A stretch of 27,513 nt of DNA, from assembly GCF_003334385.1 (NCBI RefSeq), contig NZ_QOWN01000057.1; one strand, given 5' to 3'. Each line of letters opens with the position of its first letter. The first letter of the stretch is position 1. Below the pieces are notes generated by a model that did not search any database, was not told where the DNA came from, and saw nothing but the letters and a program-made list of their open reading frames with translations. Positions 4,308-27,513 of the stretch are shown here, piece by piece. The translations under genes and the position numbers were made by a program. The stretch is from Escherichia coli. GTDB taxonomy: Bacteria > Pseudomonadota > Gammaproteobacteria > Enterobacterales > Enterobacteriaceae.

Positions 4308-4514
4308 AGTAAAACCTGGCATGTATTGATTAATAGTTGGCCGAAGCCGTTCTAGGTTTGCGTTGCGTTTGAGGAGGTAAATTGACCGCTATCCTGTAGT
4401 GATGTTGCCAGAGTTACGCGCGCGTAAAGTAAGGTAAATAACTGAGTGGTTATTTTAGGGATGTAAGCGGTCAGTTTTGCGGTTGAGCGGCAAAGGCGTC
4501 GTTTAAGTGACGAT

Positions 4515-4540
4515 AAATATGTGATTCATATCACATATTT
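4515..4540. promoter_or_regulatory. Candidate CRP site: 10-bp inverted arms AAATATGTGA / TCACATATTT around a 6-bp spacer (core TGTGA-N6-TCACA)
   Basis: Read directly from the sequence; the core matches the CRP consensus half-sites. It lies in the divergent btsT-tsr intergenic region; btsT/yjiY is known to be cAMP-CRP dependent. Confidence 0.5.
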
Positions 4541-4626
4541 ATATTGTGAATAATTTATGTAAATAATGGCTTTTTAAATTCAGAGTGTGAATAAAATTAC
4601 TCGGCGTAATCTCCGCGGGATATTCA

Positions 4627-19117: not shown

Positions 19118-19204
19118 TGGTGCGAGGGGGGGGACTTGAACCCCCACGTCCGTAAGGACACTAACACCTGAAGCTAGCGCGTCTACCAATTCCGCCACCT
19201 TCGC
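19118..19204 (-). tRNA. tRNA-Leu (anticodon CAG), 87 nt including CCA
   Basis: The reverse complement reads GCGAAGGTGGCGGAATTGGTAGACGCGCTAGCTTCAGGTGTTAGTGTCCTTACGGACGTGGGGGTTCAAGTCCCCCCCCTCGCACCA: class II tRNA with a long variable arm and a CAG anticodon. Only one copy is present. Confidence 0.95.
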
Positions 19205-19339: not shown

Positions 19340-19495
<156 letters not shown>

Positions 19496-19504
19496 GCGGG
19501 ATAC

Positions 19505-20536
19505 TTAACCTTTTTTCGCCTGGCGGGTCATAATGGCGCGATATACCTTGAAACGCCCGGTTTGCGCAATCACTTCATGGAAGCCAAATGTCTCATCCAG
19601 CACGTCCGGATAAGGCAGGAAGGCGTTCGCTACAATTCGCAGCTCGCCGCCACTATTAAGATGACGCACCGCGCCGCGAATCAGCGTTTGCGCCGCATCC
19701 AGGCTGGTTTGCATCCCATCGTGGAACGGCGGGTTGGAGATGATCATATCAAAACGACCTTTCACCTCGGAAAAGACGTTGCTGGCAAAGACTTCACCTT
19801 CAACACCGTTGGCCGCAAGTGTTGCGCGGCTGGCTTCTACCGCTGGCGCAGAGACATCGCACAAGGTGAGACGAATTTTCGGCGAATGGCGCGCAAAGGC
19901 AACTGAAAGCACACCCGCGCCACAGCCGACATCCAGCACTTTACCTTTCGTGTGCGGGGTTAACGTCGAGAGCAGCAACTGGCTACCGACATCCAGACCG
20001 TCGCGGCTAAACACGCCAGGCAGCGTTTTGACCGTCAGGCCATCGACGCTGTATTCGCCCCAGAATTTATCGGCATCAAATACCGGCTGTTTTTCCAGAC
20101 GACCAAAATAGAGGCCACAGCGACGAGCGCTGTCGACTTTATTCAACGGCGCATAATCTGCCAGCATCTGCTCGGCGCTGCGCACGCCGCTGCGGTTCTC
20201 GCCAACGACAAAAATATCTGTCCCCACTGGCAGCAGAGAAAGTAAATTCATCAACTGGAACTGGGCTTCCGGTTTGTTCTTCGGCCAGTAGTAAATCAGC
20301 GTATCGCAATCTGCGACGTCATCCACCGTGGCGACCAGACTGAAACGGGCGTTATCCCCCATCTGGCGGCTTAATACCTGCCAGTGGTGGAATTGCTGGG
20401 TATGAGCACGGCTGGCCGCGGTATCTAAACGCGCGGGCAGGTCATCCTGTAAGTCTCCGGCAAACAGAATACGGCTTTGTTCGAAATCATCACTGTGACG
20501 CAGCAAGACTTCACTTGCCGGGGTAAATGCAGACAT
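19505..20536 (-). CDS. rsmC: 16S rRNA m2G1207 methyltransferase
   Basis: 343 aa with a SAM-binding motif [11 protein letters not shown] and an NPPFH catalytic motif. Confidence 0.9.
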
Positions 20537-21481: not shown

Positions 21482-22159
21482 ATGAAGTGGGACTGGATTT
21501 TCTTTGATGCCGATGAAACGCTGTTTACCTTTGACTCATTCACCGGCCTGCAGCGGATGTTTCTTGATTACAGCGTCACCTTTACCGCTGAAGATTTTCA
21601 GGACTATCAGGCCGTTAACAAGCCACTGTGGGTGGATTATCAAAACGGCGCGATCACTTCATTACAGCTTCAGCACGGGCGTTTTGAGAGCTGGGCCGAA
21701 CGGCTGAAAGTTGAAGCAGGCTTGCTTAACGATGCCTTTATTAATGCGATGGCGGAAATCTGCACGCCGCTGCCGGGCGCGGTTTCTCTGCTTAACGCCA
21801 TTCGTGGCAACGCCAAAATCGGCATCATCACCAACGGCTTTAGCGCCTTGCAGCAAGTGCGTCTGGAACGCACGGGCCTGCGTGATTACTTCGATTTGCT
21901 GGTGATTTCCGAAGAAGTTGGCGTTGCCAAACCGAATAAGAAAATTTTCGATTATGCGCTGGAACAGGCGGGCAATCCTGACCGTTCACGCGTGCTGATG
22001 GTTGGCGACACTGCCGAGTCCGATATTCTCGGTGGCATCAACGCCGGGCTTGCGACCTGCTGGCTGAATGCGCACCATCGCGAGCAACCAGAAGGCATCG
22101 CGCCCACCAGGACCGTTTCTTCGTTGCACGAACTGGAGCAGCTCCTGTGTAAACACTGA
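21482..22159 (+). CDS. yjjG: HAD-family pyrimidine 5'-nucleotidase YjjG
   Basis: 225 aa with the HAD motif I FFDADETL near the N-terminus. Confidence 0.9.
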
Positions 22160-22249
22160 TTGCCTCCCCCCCGTTGATGGGTAAAATAGCCGCAATTTTT
22201 CGTTTTCAACAAGCGCGGCGCGATGCCGCTTACTCAAGAAGAAAGAATT

Positions 22250-22324
22250 ATGACGTTGTCTCCTTATTTGCAAGAGGTGGCGAAGCGCCGCACTTTTGCC
22301 ATTATTTCTCACCCCAATAATTAA
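22250..22324 (+). pseudogene. prfC: Truncated 5' end of prfC (peptide chain release factor RF3): 22 native codons, then 2 foreign codons and a stop
   Basis: The ATG at 22250 encodes [22 protein letters not shown], identical to the RF3 N-terminus as I recall it. The G1 P-loop motif (HPDAGKTT in K-12) is broken after HP; the frame continues NN-stop and the sequence becomes AT-rich and unrelated. Confidence 0.8.
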
Positions 22325-22478
22325 GCCCAAATTAAAGCTCTTTTACTCTTTCAAAGTCCTTTCAGTTAATTGAGTGCTAATCATATAACTCATTTAATAA
22401 CATGATGTTATGTGGTTTCTTTAATTGAAAATTCTTTCATGTAACTTTAAATCGATCAGGTTGCTTTCATCAAAAATC

Positions 22479-22535
22479 TGTACATGTGCTTGTACATAAT
22501 GTACAAAACAGCAGAGGTGTTTTTTTATTTGTACA
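22479..22535. promoter_or_regulatory. Four TGTACA hexamers (22479, 22491, 22500, 22530) upstream of the integrase start; candidate operator or arm-type sites
   Basis: Read directly: ctgTGTACATgtgctTGTACATaaTGTACAAaac...tttatTTGTACAAggtgagtaATG. Confidence 0.3.
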
Positions 22536-22544
22536 AGGTGAGTA

Positions 22545-23756
22545 ATGGCGCTGTCTGATGCGTGGTTGCGTTCAGTCGTTGGAAAGGAACGTGATAAGGT
22601 TTTGGTAAAATCCGATCGTGATGGTCTGTCTGTCAGAGTATCACCGAAAGGTCGCGTAGTGTTCCAATACCGTTATCAATGGGCAGGGAAAGGTGAGCGT
22701 CTTGATATCGGAACTTACCCGGCAACTGGATTAAAAGAGGCCAGAGAAGAAGTTATCCGTCTCCGTGGTGAACTCGAGTCAAACCGTAATCCACGATTGG
22801 TCAAGCAGGCTGAAAAACGAAAAGCTACTGAAGCCATGACGGTAGAGTCTGTGATCCGTGCCTGGTATGAAGCATATTGTGTAAAAAATAAAAAGGGTTC
22901 TGAACAGATACTCCGCTCGTTTGAGCTGCACCTGTTCTCTAAAATCGGGAATATCCCTCACGATGCAGCTACATTGCATGATTGGTTAGAAGTCCTGGAG
23001 CCTCTTAGCACTAAGACTCCAGCAATAGCAGACCGATTGCTAATTAACGCAAAGCAGGCCCATGTCTGGGCGTATAAGAGAAAGCTTATTGAAACTCGCC
23101 CGCTGTCGGACATCACGGGTAAAGATATGGATATCCGTAAAGGTCAGAAGAAACGGTTTCTGACACACGATGAAATTAAAATTCTTTATGCTGCGATCGA
23201 TGGTTCTCGAATGGTTCCCAAATACCGGGCCTTCATTAAACTATTGCTGCATTTCGGCTGTCGTAGTTCAGAGCTGATTACTGCCAGGGTGGACGATTTT
23301 GATTTCATTAATAAGGTATGGACTGTACCACCAGAACGACATAAGACAGGGGACATAACAGGCGAACCGCTAAAGCGGCCCATTATTGAACCTGTTGAAG
23401 AGCTTATAAAATATGTTATCTCTATGAACAACGGTTCCGATATGCTTTTTACTAAGGAAGGAAGCAGGGAGCCGGTTGGTCGGACATCATTGCAGTCGCT
23501 GCCTTACAATTTAATGCAGTACGCATGGCGGCGTTTAGGATATCAATTCCCTCATTGGTCTCTTCATGACTTGAGACGTACAGCTCGAACAAATTTTTCT
23601 GATCTTACTGCGCCTCATATCGCAGAAATTATGCTTGGTCATAAGCTGCCAGGGGTATGGCAAGTTTATGATAAGAGCGATTATCTAGAAGAACAGCGTA
23701 AAGCCTACCAGACATGGTGGGAGAGAGTTGAATCGATAGTTACTTGTACTAGCTAA
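22545..23756 (+). CDS. Tyrosine site-specific integrase (P4-like; N-terminal DUF4102-type arm-binding domain plus catalytic domain)
   Basis: 403 aa. N-terminus MALSDAWLRSVVGKERDKVLVKSDRDGLSVRVSPKGRVVFQYRY is typical of the P4-integrase family. The C-terminus carries catalytic-box residues HDLRRTARTN (H-x-x-R), LGHK and the nucleophile Tyr in VYDKSDY. Confidence 0.9.
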   Translation: MALSDAWLRSVVGKERDKVLVKSDRDGLSVRVSPKGRVVFQYRYQWAGKGERLDIGTYPATGLKEAREEVIRLRGELESNRNPRLVKQAEKRKATEAMTVESVIRAWYEAYCVKNKKGSEQILRSFELHLFSKIGNIPHDAATLHDWLEVLEPLSTKTPAIADRLLINAKQAHVWAYKRKLIETRPLSDITGKDMDIRKGQKKRFLTHDEIKILYAAIDGSRMVPKYRAFIKLLLHFGCRSSELITARVDDFDFINKVWTVPPERHKTGDITGEPLKRPIIEPVEELIKYVISMNNGSDMLFTKEGSREPVGRTSLQSLPYNLMQYAWRRLGYQFPHWSLHDLRRTARTNFSDLTAPHIAEIMLGHKLPGVWQVYDKSDYLEEQRKAYQTWWERVESIVTCTS

Positions 23757-24052
23757 GATTCCCGTTGACAGTTTGCGTAGCCAGAGCGCAATCAAATCTG
23801 ACGGTCTGCTTTGAGCTGAAGAGCGGATCTTATGTTCTTTTCACTGTTTCCTCAAAAGCATCTATTACTCACTTCGTTGCTCTTTGTGTCGTTTTGAAGA
23901 AAATGCCACTTAACAAAGAATTGGATTAACTAACTTTTTTAAAGGATGTACTTGCAACTTCAATCACAGAAAAAATTTCCAGTTACCCTAAAATGGTCAG
24001 CTTAAATCATTTTCAAAAAATTATTCAAATGTGTAGGGGAAGTGGGATTTTT

Positions 24053-25840
24053 ATGAGACTTGAAAAACTAATTTTAAAGAATTTTCGTGGCTATCACGGT
24101 GAACATAGTATTGACATTAATTCACTAACTGCAATCGTTGGACGTAATGATGTTGGAAAAACAACTATCCTAGATGCGCTTGGAGTGTTTTTTGACCATA
24201 AATTATGTAAATATGATGCTGCCGATAAATGTGTTGATAGTTTAGATAATGATGACGTAGCAATTGGGTGTGTTTTTTCAGGGGTTGAAATACCTATTGT
24301 CTTAGATGCTTCATCTATAACTAATCTTGAAAAAGAATACTTATTAAATAATGATAAAAAGTTAGAGATATATAAGGTTTTTACTAAAGGTAAGGGAAAT
24401 GGTAGCATTCAAGCGAAATGTATGGCTCCATCAGTAAAAAGTGCAAAGTCTTTACTCGCTAAAAAAAATGAGGAGCTTAAAAGAATTGCTGAATCTATTG
24501 GTGTGGATGATGCAGACAAAAGAAGTAATGTTAGTTTAAGGCAAGAGATTTACAAGAAAATTGGAGATTTGAAACTTCATGAAAGCTTTGTTAAATTAAA
24601 TGCTGAGGAGGGTAAAGTAATTTGTGATAAAATATACGATAAACTCCCTCATTTTGCACTGTTTCGCGCAGATAGACCTAGCACTGATGAAGAATCAGAA
24701 GTACAAGACCCTATGAAGTCAGCTGTACAAACAGCATTGCAAAAAATTGATGTTCAACTTGAGTCCATTAAAGATAATGTAAAAAAACACGCAATTTCCG
24801 TAGCGAATAACACAATTAATCATTTGCATGATATATCTCCTAATCTTGCATCTGGATTAGTTCCAAAGTTTAAGGTGGAACCTAAGTGGGAAAATATTTT
24901 TAAACTGACACTAGAAGATGATAGAGGTATCGCTATAAATAAACGTGGCAGTGGCGTTAGACGTCTTGTCCTGATTAGCTTTTTTAAAGCAGAAGCAGAA
25001 AGATTGCAAAGTGAATTCCCAGATAAAGGTGTTATCTATGCTATCGAAGAACCTGAAACATCTCAACACCCCTCTAATCAGAGACTCCTTATTGAGGCTT
25101 TTCAAGAGTTAGCAAGTTCAGATAAATGCCAAGTATTAATCACCACTCACGTACCAGCACTCGTAGAAAAGATACCGACTGAGTCTTTACGCCATATAAC
25201 CAGAACTCTTGACAATGGTTTAGAAGTAAAAAATGGTGATGATGATGTTCTTAAGAATATAGCAAATGATCTAGGTGTATACCCCGACAGTAGGGCATCT
25301 GTTCTTGTGTGCGTTGAAGGTCCTAATGATATAAACTTTTTAAAAAATATCGGTAAGGTTTATCTTGATTATGGTGTTAAAAATGTTCCAGACATGATGA
25401 ATGATCCGCGTATAGTTTTTATTCCAATGGGGGGGCATACTCTCAAAGATTGGGTTAATAACAATTATTTGAAAGTTCTAAATAAACCAGAGGTTCATAT
25501 TTATGACAGAGATGTTGCAGTTCCTCCCCAGTATGAAAATGAATGTAATTCAGTAAATGCAAGGAAGGATGGCTCTATAGCATTTATGACCCAAAAAAGA
25601 GAAATGGAGAATTATTTACACCCTGATGCCATTCAGGCTGTTTTCGGTATTACTCTAACCATAGACGATATGACAGATGTTCCTTCCGTTGTATCTAAAT
25701 TAACAGCATTCAATGAAAGCAAAGCGAAGAAGAAACTTAATAAGTTCGCTACAGGTAAAATGAGCTATCAAATGCTCACTGCAAGCGATACAGAAAGAGA
25801 GACGTTATCATGGTTTAATGCTATATATGACAGATTATAA
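24053..25840 (+). CDS. OLD-family ATP-dependent endonuclease-like protein (N-terminal ABC/AAA ATPase plus C-terminal Toprim); candidate single-gene anti-phage / abortive-infection factor
   Basis: Walker A VGRNDVGKTT near the N-terminus; Walker B / D-loop VIYAIEEPETSQHPS; H-loop LITTHVP; C-terminal Toprim-like motifs VLVCVEGPND (conserved Glu) and VHIYDRD (DxD). Start placed at MRLEKLILKNFRGY, with GGGGAAG about 10 nt upstream, rather than the track start 23993. About 595 aa, close to the size I recall for P2 Old. The gene is markedly AT-rich. No UvrD-like helicase partner is adjacent. Confidence 0.8.
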   Translation: MRLEKLILKNFRGYHGEHSIDINSLTAIVGRNDVGKTTILDALGVFFDHKLCKYDAADKCVDSLDNDDVAIGCVFSGVEIPIVLDASSITNLEKEYLLNNDKKLEIYKVFTKGKGNGSIQAKCMAPSVKSAKSLLAKKNEELKRIAESIGVDDADKRSNVSLRQEIYKKIGDLKLHESFVKLNAEEGKVICDKIYDKLPHFALFRADRPSTDEESEVQDPMKSAVQTALQKIDVQLESIKDNVKKHAISVANNTINHLHDISPNLASGLVPKFKVEPKWENIFKLTLEDDRGIAINKRGSGVRRLVLISFFKAEAERLQSEFPDKGVIYAIEEPETSQHPSNQRLLIEAFQELASSDKCQVLITTHVPALVEKIPTESLRHITRTLDNGLEVKNGDDDVLKNIANDLGVYPDSRASVLVCVEGPNDINFLKNIGKVYLDYGVKNVPDMMNDPRIVFIPMGGHTLKDWVNNNYLKVLNKPEVHIYDRDVAVPPQYENECNSVNARKDGSIAFMTQKREMENYLHPDAIQAVFGITLTIDDMTDVPSVVSKLTAFNESKAKKKLNKFATGKMSYQMLTASDTERETLSWFNAIYDRL

Positions 25841-25980
25841 CGTTTGATTGTACGCAATTAGGGATCTTTCTTGATATTTAAAAGGCTGCTCCATACATCG
25901 CCTCACAATAGTGGTGTCGTTATTCGGTTACAAATACTACTACTAGGGGGACGGTGAGTGCTAAGGTAACTGTCCTTATT

Positions 25981-26057
25981 GGCACAGAGCGGATTTCAGA
26001 TTAGGTGTGACTCTGTGCCATAGATGGGTATTAGCTCACATTTGATCTAATACCCAT
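25981..26057. terminator. Two stem-loops in the convergent intergenic region between the OLD-like gene and the alpA-like gene
   Basis: ggcacagag-N21-ctctgtgcc (25981-26019) and atgggtattag-N12-ctaatacccat (26024-26057); the second abuts the stop codon of the alpA-like gene. Confidence 0.35.
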
Positions 26058-26251
26058 TACTCAATAACTCCCGCAAACCTGTATATCTTGCGCGATGCCC
26101 ATTTATTTGGGCAGGATTTTATATCAGGATTTGGAAAGTCAGGCCTGTATTTCTGGCCTGTTTTCCTGTTTACGCTGTTCCAGCGAAGAACAGTCGATAC
26201 TGAAACGCCACAGAAGTCGGCGACTTGTTTAGTTGTCATTAAGTTGTTCAT
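26057..26251 (-). CDS. Small HTH DNA-binding protein, AlpA/excisionase-like
   Basis: 64 aa; TTKQVADFCGVSVSTVLRW resembles the AlpA/Xis-type helix-turn-helix. Its start overlaps the stop of the upstream DUF551 gene (TAATG). Confidence 0.55.
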   Translation of the reverse strand: MNNLMTTKQVADFCGVSVSTVLRWNSVNRKTGQKYRPDFPNPDIKSCPNKWASRKIYRFAGVIE

Positions 26252-26898
26252 TACTTCACCTCCTGCGGCGGCTCTGGTAGCGGTATCCAGTGGGTTACTT
26301 TCGATGCCGGTTCTTCTCCATCGTCAGTAACTGCCCACCATTTGTTTCTCGAACAATCGTAATACCCTTCGAAGGTATCGCACTCAGTCCAGCCGTAAGA
26401 CTTACCCCAACACCAAACATACTGTTTATCGTTCGGCATTCGCTCACTACAGCTTATCCAACCATCCGGAGTTACCGGAGAGTTGCCATCCAGCGCGTTC
26501 AACTTGTAAGCCTGGCTTACAGGTTCGGCACTATGAAGTATGGCTGCGCGGCAGGCGTTCCAGCCTGTAGCGTATGCAGCCGCTTTGCTGCTGTCTTCAA
26601 CTGGCGCATCCTGCCAATACATTTCTTCCGGCACTATCGGCGCTGGAGGGGCGGCAAATAGATATCCGCCAAAGTCAGGAAGCTCTCCAATGGCCTGTAC
26701 GAACTTTTGTTTGCCTACGTCAACTCCTAATGGGTAATGAGCTATAATCTTTGCCACCGGCTCTGCTTCCAGCGATACCAGTGCAATTCGTGCCAGTTCT
26801 TCCGCTTCTTCTGCTGGCAGTACAACGTTGCTACCCGGTCCGTATGTTTCGCGCCACTGCTTGATTGTCAGCAGTCGCCCTTTGGTAATAGTGATCAT
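26251..26898 (-). CDS. DUF551 domain protein (phage-associated)
   Basis: 215 aa; the C-terminal region WISCSERMPNDKQYVWCWG...WWAVTDDGEEPASKVTHWIPLPEPP matches the DUF551 signature (...VTHWMPLPEPP) as I recall it. Start overlaps the stop of the upstream gene (ATGA). Confidence 0.65.
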   Translation of the reverse strand: MITITKGRLLTIKQWRETYGPGSNVVLPAEEAEELARIALVSLEAEPVAKIIAHYPLGVDVGKQKFVQAIGELPDFGGYLFAAPPAPIVPEEMYWQDAPVEDSSKAAAYATGWNACRAAILHSAEPVSQAYKLNALDGNSPVTPDGWISCSERMPNDKQYVWCWGKSYGWTECDTFEGYYDCSRNKWWAVTDDGEEPASKVTHWIPLPEPPQEVK

Positions 26899-27410
26899 GC
26901 CGCGTATCCTTCTTTCTTATTAACAATCACACCGTCATATATTTCATTAAGGTGCCCTCTCAACTCCATGCGCCTTAATGCAGATAACATGTAATCGCAT
27001 TCAACCTGCTTATTCCCAGTAAATGGCTTATCGTCAGGATTACCCCAACAGCAATTACCCCTGGGCCATCCATGTACTTTCCGTACTCTTCCGTTAACAA
27101 CGTGAAGTAATCCCCAGCCGGGAGGTAAATCCTCAACTGAAATAATTTCCGGCTCACTAATAAAGAATCGCCAGTCGCCCATGCCAAGTGAGGGATTTTT
27201 ACGGAAACGCTTTTTTCTATCTGCCAACAAGTCAGCACGAGAACACTTCGCCTCTATCAGGCATGATGCTGAATTTCTGAATCCCATAGCATCTGGCTGT
27301 TCTCCGGTACTGGTTACAGCAACAAAGCGGTCATGAAAGCAAACCTTGAACCCGTTGCGCTTAAGGAACTTGTACGCAATCTGACAGAGTTCGTGGTGTG
27401 TTAACGCCAT
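26895..27410 (-). CDS. PD-(D/E)xK-type nuclease, MmcB-like
   Basis: Start set at MALTHHELCQIAYKFLKRNGF... with AAGGAG 7 nt upstream (the track ORF starts 11 codons earlier at 27443). Contains a PD...EAK arrangement (EQPDAMGF...CLIEAKCSRAD) consistent with a PD-(D/E)xK active site. Confidence 0.55.
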   Translation of the reverse strand: MALTHHELCQIAYKFLKRNGFKVCFHDRFVAVTSTGEQPDAMGFRNSASCLIEAKCSRADLLADRKKRFRKNPSLGMGDWRFFISEPEIISVEDLPPGWGLLHVVNGRVRKVHGWPRGNCCWGNPDDKPFTGNKQVECDYMLSALRRMELRGHLNEIYDGVIVNKKEGYAA

Positions 27411-27411
27411 A

Positions 27412-27513
27412 TCACTCTCCTTTGATGCGAATGCCTGTTGCAATGCTGTTTATGATGCTGTCAGTGCATGGGGTAGAAAGCTGGGCATCTCCAGCAATTT
27501 TCATGACCTCAAC
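27412..27513 (-). CDS. 3' end of an upstream ORF (partial, continues beyond the window), product unknown
   Basis: On the minus strand the frame ...VEVMKIAGDAQLSTPCTDSIINSIATGIRIKGE-stop is open from the window edge; its TGA lies 1 nt before the ATG of the MmcB-like gene, and the MmcB RBS sits within its last codons. Confidence 0.3.
   Translation of the reverse strand, partial: VEVMKIAGDAQLSTPCTDSIINSIATGIRIKGE

Follow-up and report, generated by a model that had tools for sequence, protein, structure and literature searches.

The 5′ end of prfC, the gene for release factor 3 (RF3), is a textbook non-tRNA attachment site of the SXT/R391 integrative and conjugative elements (ICEs), and its use has also been documented for phage cdtI and for Shiga toxin (Stx) phages. 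Integration of SXT at prfC's 5′ end was reportedly described by Hochhut and Waldor in 1999, and phage cdtI by Asakura et al. in 2007. The integrase of phage cdtI, that of SXT (IntSXT), and those of related ICEs constitute one cluster that inserts next to prfC (Smyshlyaev et al. 2021, PMC8138268), and the attP consensus of the SXT/R391 elements is the 17-bp sequence ATcATcTCtCACCCtGA (PMC9058013). In the case of the O103 Stx1 phage, integration into prfC alters the N-terminus of the protein and removes the authentic promoter and ribosome-binding site (RBS) (Ogura et al. 2007, PMC2323221). A junction of this kind is present in the Escherichia coli contig NZ_QOWN01000057.1 (assembly GCF_003334385.1), from which a stretch of 27,513 nucleotides, hereafter the window, was analyzed. 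Positions 22250-27513 very probably represent the left attachment site (attL) together with the initial 5.2 kb of a lambdoid temperate prophage of the cdtI type, inserted in the 5′ coding region of prfC.

Translation of positions 22250-22315 (+ strand) gives the first 22 codons of prfC, which are followed by two phage-derived asparagine codons and a stop at 22322-22324. The resulting stub (22250-22324, +) corresponds to a 69-nt feature in relatives that the Prokaryotic Genome Annotation Pipeline (PGAP) labels as a partial pseudogene. P22 is separated by the break from D23, within SHP/DAGKT, the G1/P-loop motif of translational GTPases, and the GC content drops from approximately 0.55 to 0.40 across the junction, with values of 0.31-0.37 over 23750-25750. 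An earlier note on this DNA had described the 22 codons running into AT-rich foreign DNA and the splitting of the P-loop, both of which stand. It had also placed an integrase 220 bp downstream; the integrase is borne out by its Pfam domains, but not the distance, as its start lies 229 nt past the last prfC base. The left flank is genuine K-12-like yjjG-prfC sequence, since a composite empty site (window 22100-22314 plus the prfC continuation borrowed from a relative) aligns end to end, at approximately 99-100% and with yjjG and prfC annotated, in 4,717 of 5,426 complete E. coli genomes.

The core of the attachment site is the 14-bp sequence ATTATTTCTCACCC (22301-22314), identical in attL and in the attR of relatives, which encodes I-I-S-H-P of the RF3 P-loop. 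Mismatches bound both of its ends, with GCC in attL and GCA in attR to the left, and C-AATAAT in attL and G-GACGCC in attR to the right, and the crossover must therefore fall within these 14 bp. The core overlaps the SXT/R391 site mentioned above, and it is the direct repeat that the earlier note had proposed to look for. In the attP of phage cdtI, a perfect 7-bp inverted repeat, AATTATT/AATAATT, surrounds the 9 bp TCTCACCCC. Its counterparts in the window, ATTATT (22301-22306) and AATAATT (22316-22322), flank the same sequence within 22301-22322 and are putative core-type integrase sites, this arrangement having the look that would be expected of such sites on both sides of an overlap region.

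The right junction is seen in the relatives. The closest complete genome, E. coli JNEC-KY204, is 99.8% identical over 96% of window 21900-27513, and its attR reads AATTATGACAAGCCTTTTGGCCGCAGAGGTAGCGAAAAGAAGAACCTTTGCA ATTATTTCTCACCC GGACGCCGGTAAG. There, ATGACAAGCCTTTTGGCCGCAGAGGTAGCGAAAAGAAGAACCTTTGCAATTATTTCTCACCC is joined to GGACGCC, and a phage-encoded start of 21 residues is fused in frame to DAGKTT, resulting in an uninterrupted RF3 of 528 residues, which PGAP calls prfC. Likewise, strain O103:H2 12009 holds a matching stub and a matching N-terminus of a chimeric 528-residue prfC product, with a Stx1a prophage between them. Recombination of attP with attB in the 14-bp core thus creates both the stub and the chimeric gene. 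The chimeric prfC that the earlier note expected at the far end is, in these relatives, a real open reading frame (ORF). Its accompanying requirement, that the element supply a replacement N-terminus and promoter, holds for the N-terminus in the same relatives, in the form of the 21-codon phage start, while a replacement promoter is only weakly predicted.

When the phage half of attR is joined to the phage half of attL, the predicted attP of 530 nt is found as a contiguous sequence in phage cdtI (98.7% identity, 100% coverage), as well as in phages 2H10 and Ayreon, the latter recorded from the host E. coli K12. Window 22315-22560 equals the right half of the cdtI attP. In this attP, 21 codons imitate the prfC start and, like the stub, end in two asparagine codons and a stop.

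The same junction is widespread. With window 22100-22560 as the query and a coverage of at least 80%, a cdtI-type attL was found in 701 of the 5,426 complete E. coli genomes, and the corresponding attR in 699 of them, with prfC and a DinI-like gene annotated beneath it in the matches shown. The cdtI-type site is thus occupied in approximately 13% of these genomes, which accounts for nearly every filled prfC site. Since the same attL occurs in 701 complete genomes, the junction is real and does not represent the assembly artefact that the earlier note had named as a possible refutation.

The gene next to the stub (22545-23756, +) encodes a tyrosine integrase of the cdtI-phage type, with 403 residues and three Pfam domains: PF13356 Arm-DNA-bind_3 (residues 3-90), PF22022 Phage_int_M (101-192), and PF00589 Phage_integrase (205-379). 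It matches the integrase family phrog_1 (6e-75) and is identical to the cdtI integrase at 399 of 403 positions; in NCBIfam, only sub-threshold matches and no specific family were obtained. By way of its 99% identity to the cdtI integrase, the protein is putatively assigned to the SXT cluster of the IntSXT subgroup. A 413-residue homologue, P0050, was considered as a representative of IntSXT and ruled out, as its contig carries a chaperone-usher fimbrial cluster.

A protein search returned more than 1,000 homologues of this integrase, and the genomic context was compared for four of them, from Serratia, Vibrio diabolicus, Pseudomonas, and the betaproteobacterium Acidovorax, with 51-61% identity. 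In all four, a prfC stub lies approximately 200 bp upstream of the integrase gene; it runs up to IISHP and is then terminated within 0-9 codons. The Serratia homologue is in a prophage-like setting. The breakpoint shared by four genera, together with the SXT consensus and the published cluster, indicates that the choice of target is a property of the clade, and the nucleotide string that it makes use of is among the most conserved in a conserved gene. An insertion into the 5′ coding region of a protein gene had been considered in the earlier note as less usual; for this clade it is not, with SXT, the O103 Stx1 phage, and cdtI as precedents. In Pseudomonas, V. diabolicus, and Acidovorax, the integrase is followed by conserved ORFs of approximately 79 and 90 residues. 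Next to them, a second tyrosine recombinase is encoded in Pseudomonas and Vibrio, the latter also with HsdR (type I restriction), and a protein of 286 residues in Acidovorax, for which no Pfam match is on record. These loci represent a different, non-phage type of island at the prfC site.

The AT-rich P′ arm of attL (22315-22544, +) contains four copies of TGTACA, at 22479, 22491, 22500, and 22530, all putative arm-type sites of the integrase. Four of the eight copies in the window are thus found within 57 bp. Over the whole window, the enrichment is not significant (8 observed versus 5.1 expected), so the signal comes from the clustering and from the conservation across genera, and not from the overall count. 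The cdtI-type attP carries four copies per arm. In all six aligned loci, including that of E. coli, a tandem GTACA-N7-GTACATAA lies approximately 70 and 58 nt before the int start codon. An inverted TATGTAC follows approximately 22 nt before this codon in Pseudomonas, Vibrio, Serratia, and Acidovorax, while it is absent from the metagenome locus L011, which has only the tandem pair. This triad is kept across genera, while the surrounding arm sequence is otherwise unrelated. The N-terminal domain of the integrase most likely recognizes the TGTACA/GTACATA repeats as arm-type sites, which possibly overlap the int promoter. No description of the P′ arm triad was found in the publications consulted.

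Taken as a mechanism, an arm-binding tyrosine integrase would bind the repeats of the arm as well as the inverted repeat at the core, and recombine attP with attB inside the 14-bp core, with Xis directing excision. The left product, visible in the window, keeps the native promoter and the 22-codon stub, ending after two more codons, while the far-end product is the phage-started, in-frame, full-length prfC seen in relatives. The phage-borne upstream region would then supply the signals for transcription and translation of prfC, and the altered RF3 would be functional. The attR of this genome is expected to resemble that of its relatives, approximately 45-60 kb further on, with a dinI-like gene, the sequence ATGACAAGCCTTTTGGCC...ATTATTTCTCACCCGGACGCC, and an intact prfC of 528 codons.

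An indication that the phage-borne start serves as a working N-terminus comes from its sequence. The nine codons to the left of the core encode EVAKRRTFA in the native and in the phage copy alike; 8 of their 27 nucleotides differ between the two copies, and all of these differences are synonymous; only one of 2,000,000 random trials with eight substitutions preserved the peptide. Upstream of this segment, the first seven to eight residues differ (MTLSPYLQ in the native protein versus MTSLLAA in the phage version, which is one residue shorter), and the phage-borne start resembles the native start of Pseudomonas RF3. The core alone suffices for recombination, yet the start codon, the reading frame, and 14 identical residues have been kept, and selection on a working N-terminus is therefore proposed.

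Several points weigh against an element that is complete in this genome and leaves prfC functional. The window stops short of the right junction of this genome, and here the element could therefore have undergone truncation or rearrangement. The purely synonymous pattern could have been inherited from the functional prfC of a donor species. Upstream of the phage-borne start, a consensus scan found no sigma-70 site on the + strand, and a lenient position weight matrix (PWM) gave moderate candidates only: TTTTCT-17-CATAAT (9.5 bits), 17 nt before the start codon, and TATGCT-17-TACAAT (5.9 bits), 59 nt before it. Both are outscored by the native TTGCCT-16-TAAAAT, with 11.9 bits. Transcription and translation of prfC in such lysogens were referred to as not known by Ogura et al., who also pointed out that the gene is not essential (PMC2323221), and Bobay et al. 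scored prfC as disrupted by prophages.

These observations could also be accommodated by an explanation in which integration inactivates a dispensable prfC, the 21 phage codons provide nothing but homology for the pairing of attP and attB, and the rebuilt ORF is poorly expressed or not expressed at all. The survey of Bobay et al., the remark by Ogura et al. that the authentic promoter and RBS are lost, and the lack of a strong predicted promoter on the phage side are in its favor. However, pairing would require only the 14-bp core, and would not account for the preservation of the start codon, the frame, and 14 residues with eight solely synonymous differences. Moreover, the full-length chimeric ORF is annotated as an intact prfC in JNEC-KY204, in O103:H2 12009, and in the two further lysogens shown. 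This explanation is thus considered unlikely, and the synonymous-only divergence, together with the intact ORFs, argues that the chimeric RF3 is expressed and active.

A second alternative, of comparably low probability, is that the element is a decayed remnant, or an island of another type, for instance an ICE or a satellite, with no more than the int-xis module in common. It draws on the fact that only 5.2 kb are visible and that the int module of this clade is common to phages, ICEs, and small islands. JNEC-KY204 itself has several pseudogenes in its early-left region, and the window differs from it by an indel in the DUF551 gene. On the other hand, the genes beyond xis all belong to lambdoid early-left PHROG families. 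Next to the excisionase of 64 residues with a helix-turn-helix motif (26057-26251, -; phrog_1553, 1.9e-35, with weak matches to NCBIfam Xis_Gifsy_1 and excise), they comprise, likewise on the - strand, a DUF551-type gene of 215 codons (26251-26898; phrog_60, 9e-63, annotated as DUF551 in relatives), and a gene of 182 codons (26895-27443; phrog_9263, 4e-120). In JNEC-KY204, the approximately 49 kb from the stub to prfC hold a full lambdoid gene set, with a LexA-family (cI-like) repressor, cro, Q, holin, lysozyme, terminase, portal, capsid, tail, and J, and end in the dinI-like gene; the two genomes that share the cargo gene described below are 99.7-99.8% identical over it, and JNEC-KY204 is the one of them that was examined in full. 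No conjugation or satellite genes were seen in the visible element or in the JNEC-KY204 prophage. The assignment to a lambdoid prophage agrees with the earlier note, which proposed that an element with a tyrosine integrase is inserted within the coding sequence of prfC.

The prophage genes allow some further observations. In the phage collection, prophages converting to Stx1a or Stx2c match the element with 93-94% identity over 40-48%, and the Stx1a and Stx2c prophages at prfC in Shiga toxin-producing E. coli match it with 94-96% identity over only about half of its visible part. Neither the window nor JNEC-KY204 showed any stx genes. Within the DUF551 gene (26487-26623), a segment of 136 nt in the window stands against approximately 400 nt in JNEC-KY204, and Rfam gave no match inside the element. 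At the far end, two LexA boxes (CTGT-N8-ACAG) are found at positions 20079-20122 of locus L002, on the attR side of the relative, in the 219 bp that separate the chimeric prfC from the divergent dinI-like gene. With these two boxes beside attR, the rebuilt prfC adjoins an SOS-regulated promoter region.

The last alternative, a chimeric contig joining yjjG and the prfC stub to unrelated phage DNA, has practically no probability left, since the window ending inside the element and one nearby repeat that looks collapsed (tRNA-Leu, one copy versus three) are set against the identical attL and reciprocal attR counted above and a matching attP in three independent phage genomes.

The prophage insertion also bears on the transcription of int. 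The native prfC promoter-like site TTGCCT-16-TAAAAT (22160-22187, +) has the top PWM score in 22100-22249 and is the sole promoter-like site on the + strand in 22100-24100; its function as a promoter is predicted from the scan, and after integration it stays upstream of both the stub and int. Transcription from the native prfC promoter may continue into int in the lysogen, as no terminator-like site was detected from 22316 to 22545 on the + strand. The circular attP has the imitation region immediately upstream of int, with both oriented alike and without a terminator between them, and the TGTACA(T/A)AT arm motifs form -10-like hexamers in the region upstream. From this arrangement, a promoter swap reporting the integration state can be put forward as a speculative model: the promoter of the imitation would drive int upon entry and would then pass to the host prfC, while int would fall under the native promoter, and the integrase, bound to the GTACATA sites, would tune both int and RF3. 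Although doubtful at present, such a mechanism would make the RF3 level a phage-controlled trait, and the arm triad would have a regulatory role as well as an architectural one.

Between int and xis, the element carries a low-GC cargo gene (24053-25840, +), whose product of 595 residues begins at M21 of the ORF starting at 23993, according to the start chosen by PGAP in a relative. The protein matches AriA of PARIS (8e-57), Old (7e-24), and GajA (1e-23) in PADLOC, AAA_15 in Pfam (3e-64), and the OLD nuclease 6p74 (2e-11) and GajA in the PDB. The fused AriAB model covers only its ATPase part, and sequence searches against NCBIfam, Pfam, and the PDB gave no assignment for the C-terminal 200 or so residues (approximately 430-615), in which a Toprim-like E...DxD pattern (VEG, DRD) can be recognized by eye. 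The gene is thus a candidate anti-phage defence gene, encoding a predicted ABC-type ATPase similar to OLD, PARIS AriA, and GajA. Elsewhere, the same slot (23757-26056) is filled by Borvo BovA (cdtI and Ayreon), by a defence-type dGTPase (O111/O157 relatives), or by unknown genes (O103:H2), and this varying defence-type content gives it the look of a hotspot for defence cargo. Most of the query including the present cargo gene was found at prfC in only two of the 5,426 genomes, those with the 99.7-99.8% identity mentioned above.

On the host side of the junction, the tRNA-Leu(CAG) gene (19118-19204) is present in one copy, versus three tandem copies in JNEC-KY204, with approximately 235 nt missing in the alignment. 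This shortfall could be due to a collapsed assembly repeat or to a real deletion by recombination between the copies. Between this gene and rsmC, Rfam detects the REP-derived nucleoid-associated RNA naRNA4 (CssrE; 19345-19427, 73 bits). Upstream of tsr (4490-4626), the window has approximately 135 nt, compared to approximately 820 nt, including a pseudogene, in JNEC-KY204.

The element is of a known kind, with a documented site and a documented integrase cluster: the consequence of integration for prfC was described in 1999 for SXT and in 2007 for the O103 Stx1 phage and cdtI, and the cluster in 2021. For annotation, its value lies in flagging a prophage whose relatives can encode the toxins Stx1a, Stx2c, or Cdt. 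In addition, approximately 13% of complete E. coli genomes encode an RF3 with a phage-supplied N-terminus, a situation that one survey scored as a disruption. Small, usable experimental handles are offered by the conserved GTACATA triad of the arm and by the slot with its variable defence-type content.

The closest described systems are the phages cdtI (NC_009514), 2H10, and Ayreon, which share with this element an attP containing the prfC imitation, the core, and the TGTACA arms (98.7% identity in cdtI). Phage cdtI and its relatives also have the same layout, with the dinI-like gene, attP, int, the cargo slot, and xis in succession. However, the cargo of cdtI and Ayreon is Borvo BovA, while here it is the OLD/AriA-like ATPase, and the cdt toxin genes that adjoin dinI in cdtI are absent from JNEC-KY204, the closest prophage relative. 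The Stx1a and Stx2c prophages at prfC in Shiga toxin-producing E. coli (O103:H2, O111:H8, and CC119; PMC2323221, PMC10132054) agree with this element in attL, attR, and the RF3 N-terminus; unlike here, their cargo slot holds a dGTPase or unknown genes.

The SXT/R391 ICEs have the same target at the 5′ end of prfC, with the site ATcATcTCtCACCCtGA, and an integrase of the same cluster (PMC8138268). Nevertheless, they carry tra genes under SetCD/SetR control, whereas the element described here is lambdoid and its relatives hold cI/cro and structural genes. The SXT family has been defined by a nearly identical Int, and three ICEs identified in genome searches encode an Int that is 99% identical to IntSXT. 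Judged from this literature, such near-identity is not expected for the present integrase. Since its relatives lack a conjugative backbone, the element is SXT-like at the att site without being a member of SXT/R391. The dusA-targeting elements differ both in the target gene and in the integrase family. Phage 21 and e14, which integrate into icd, and the P4-like elements that target tRNA genes carry the displaced gene segment, so the host gene stays intact. These icd and tRNA elements, however, replace the 3′ end of their targets and need neither a promoter nor a start, whereas at prfC it is the 5′ end that is exchanged, with the start codon, the RBS, and the promoter replaced.

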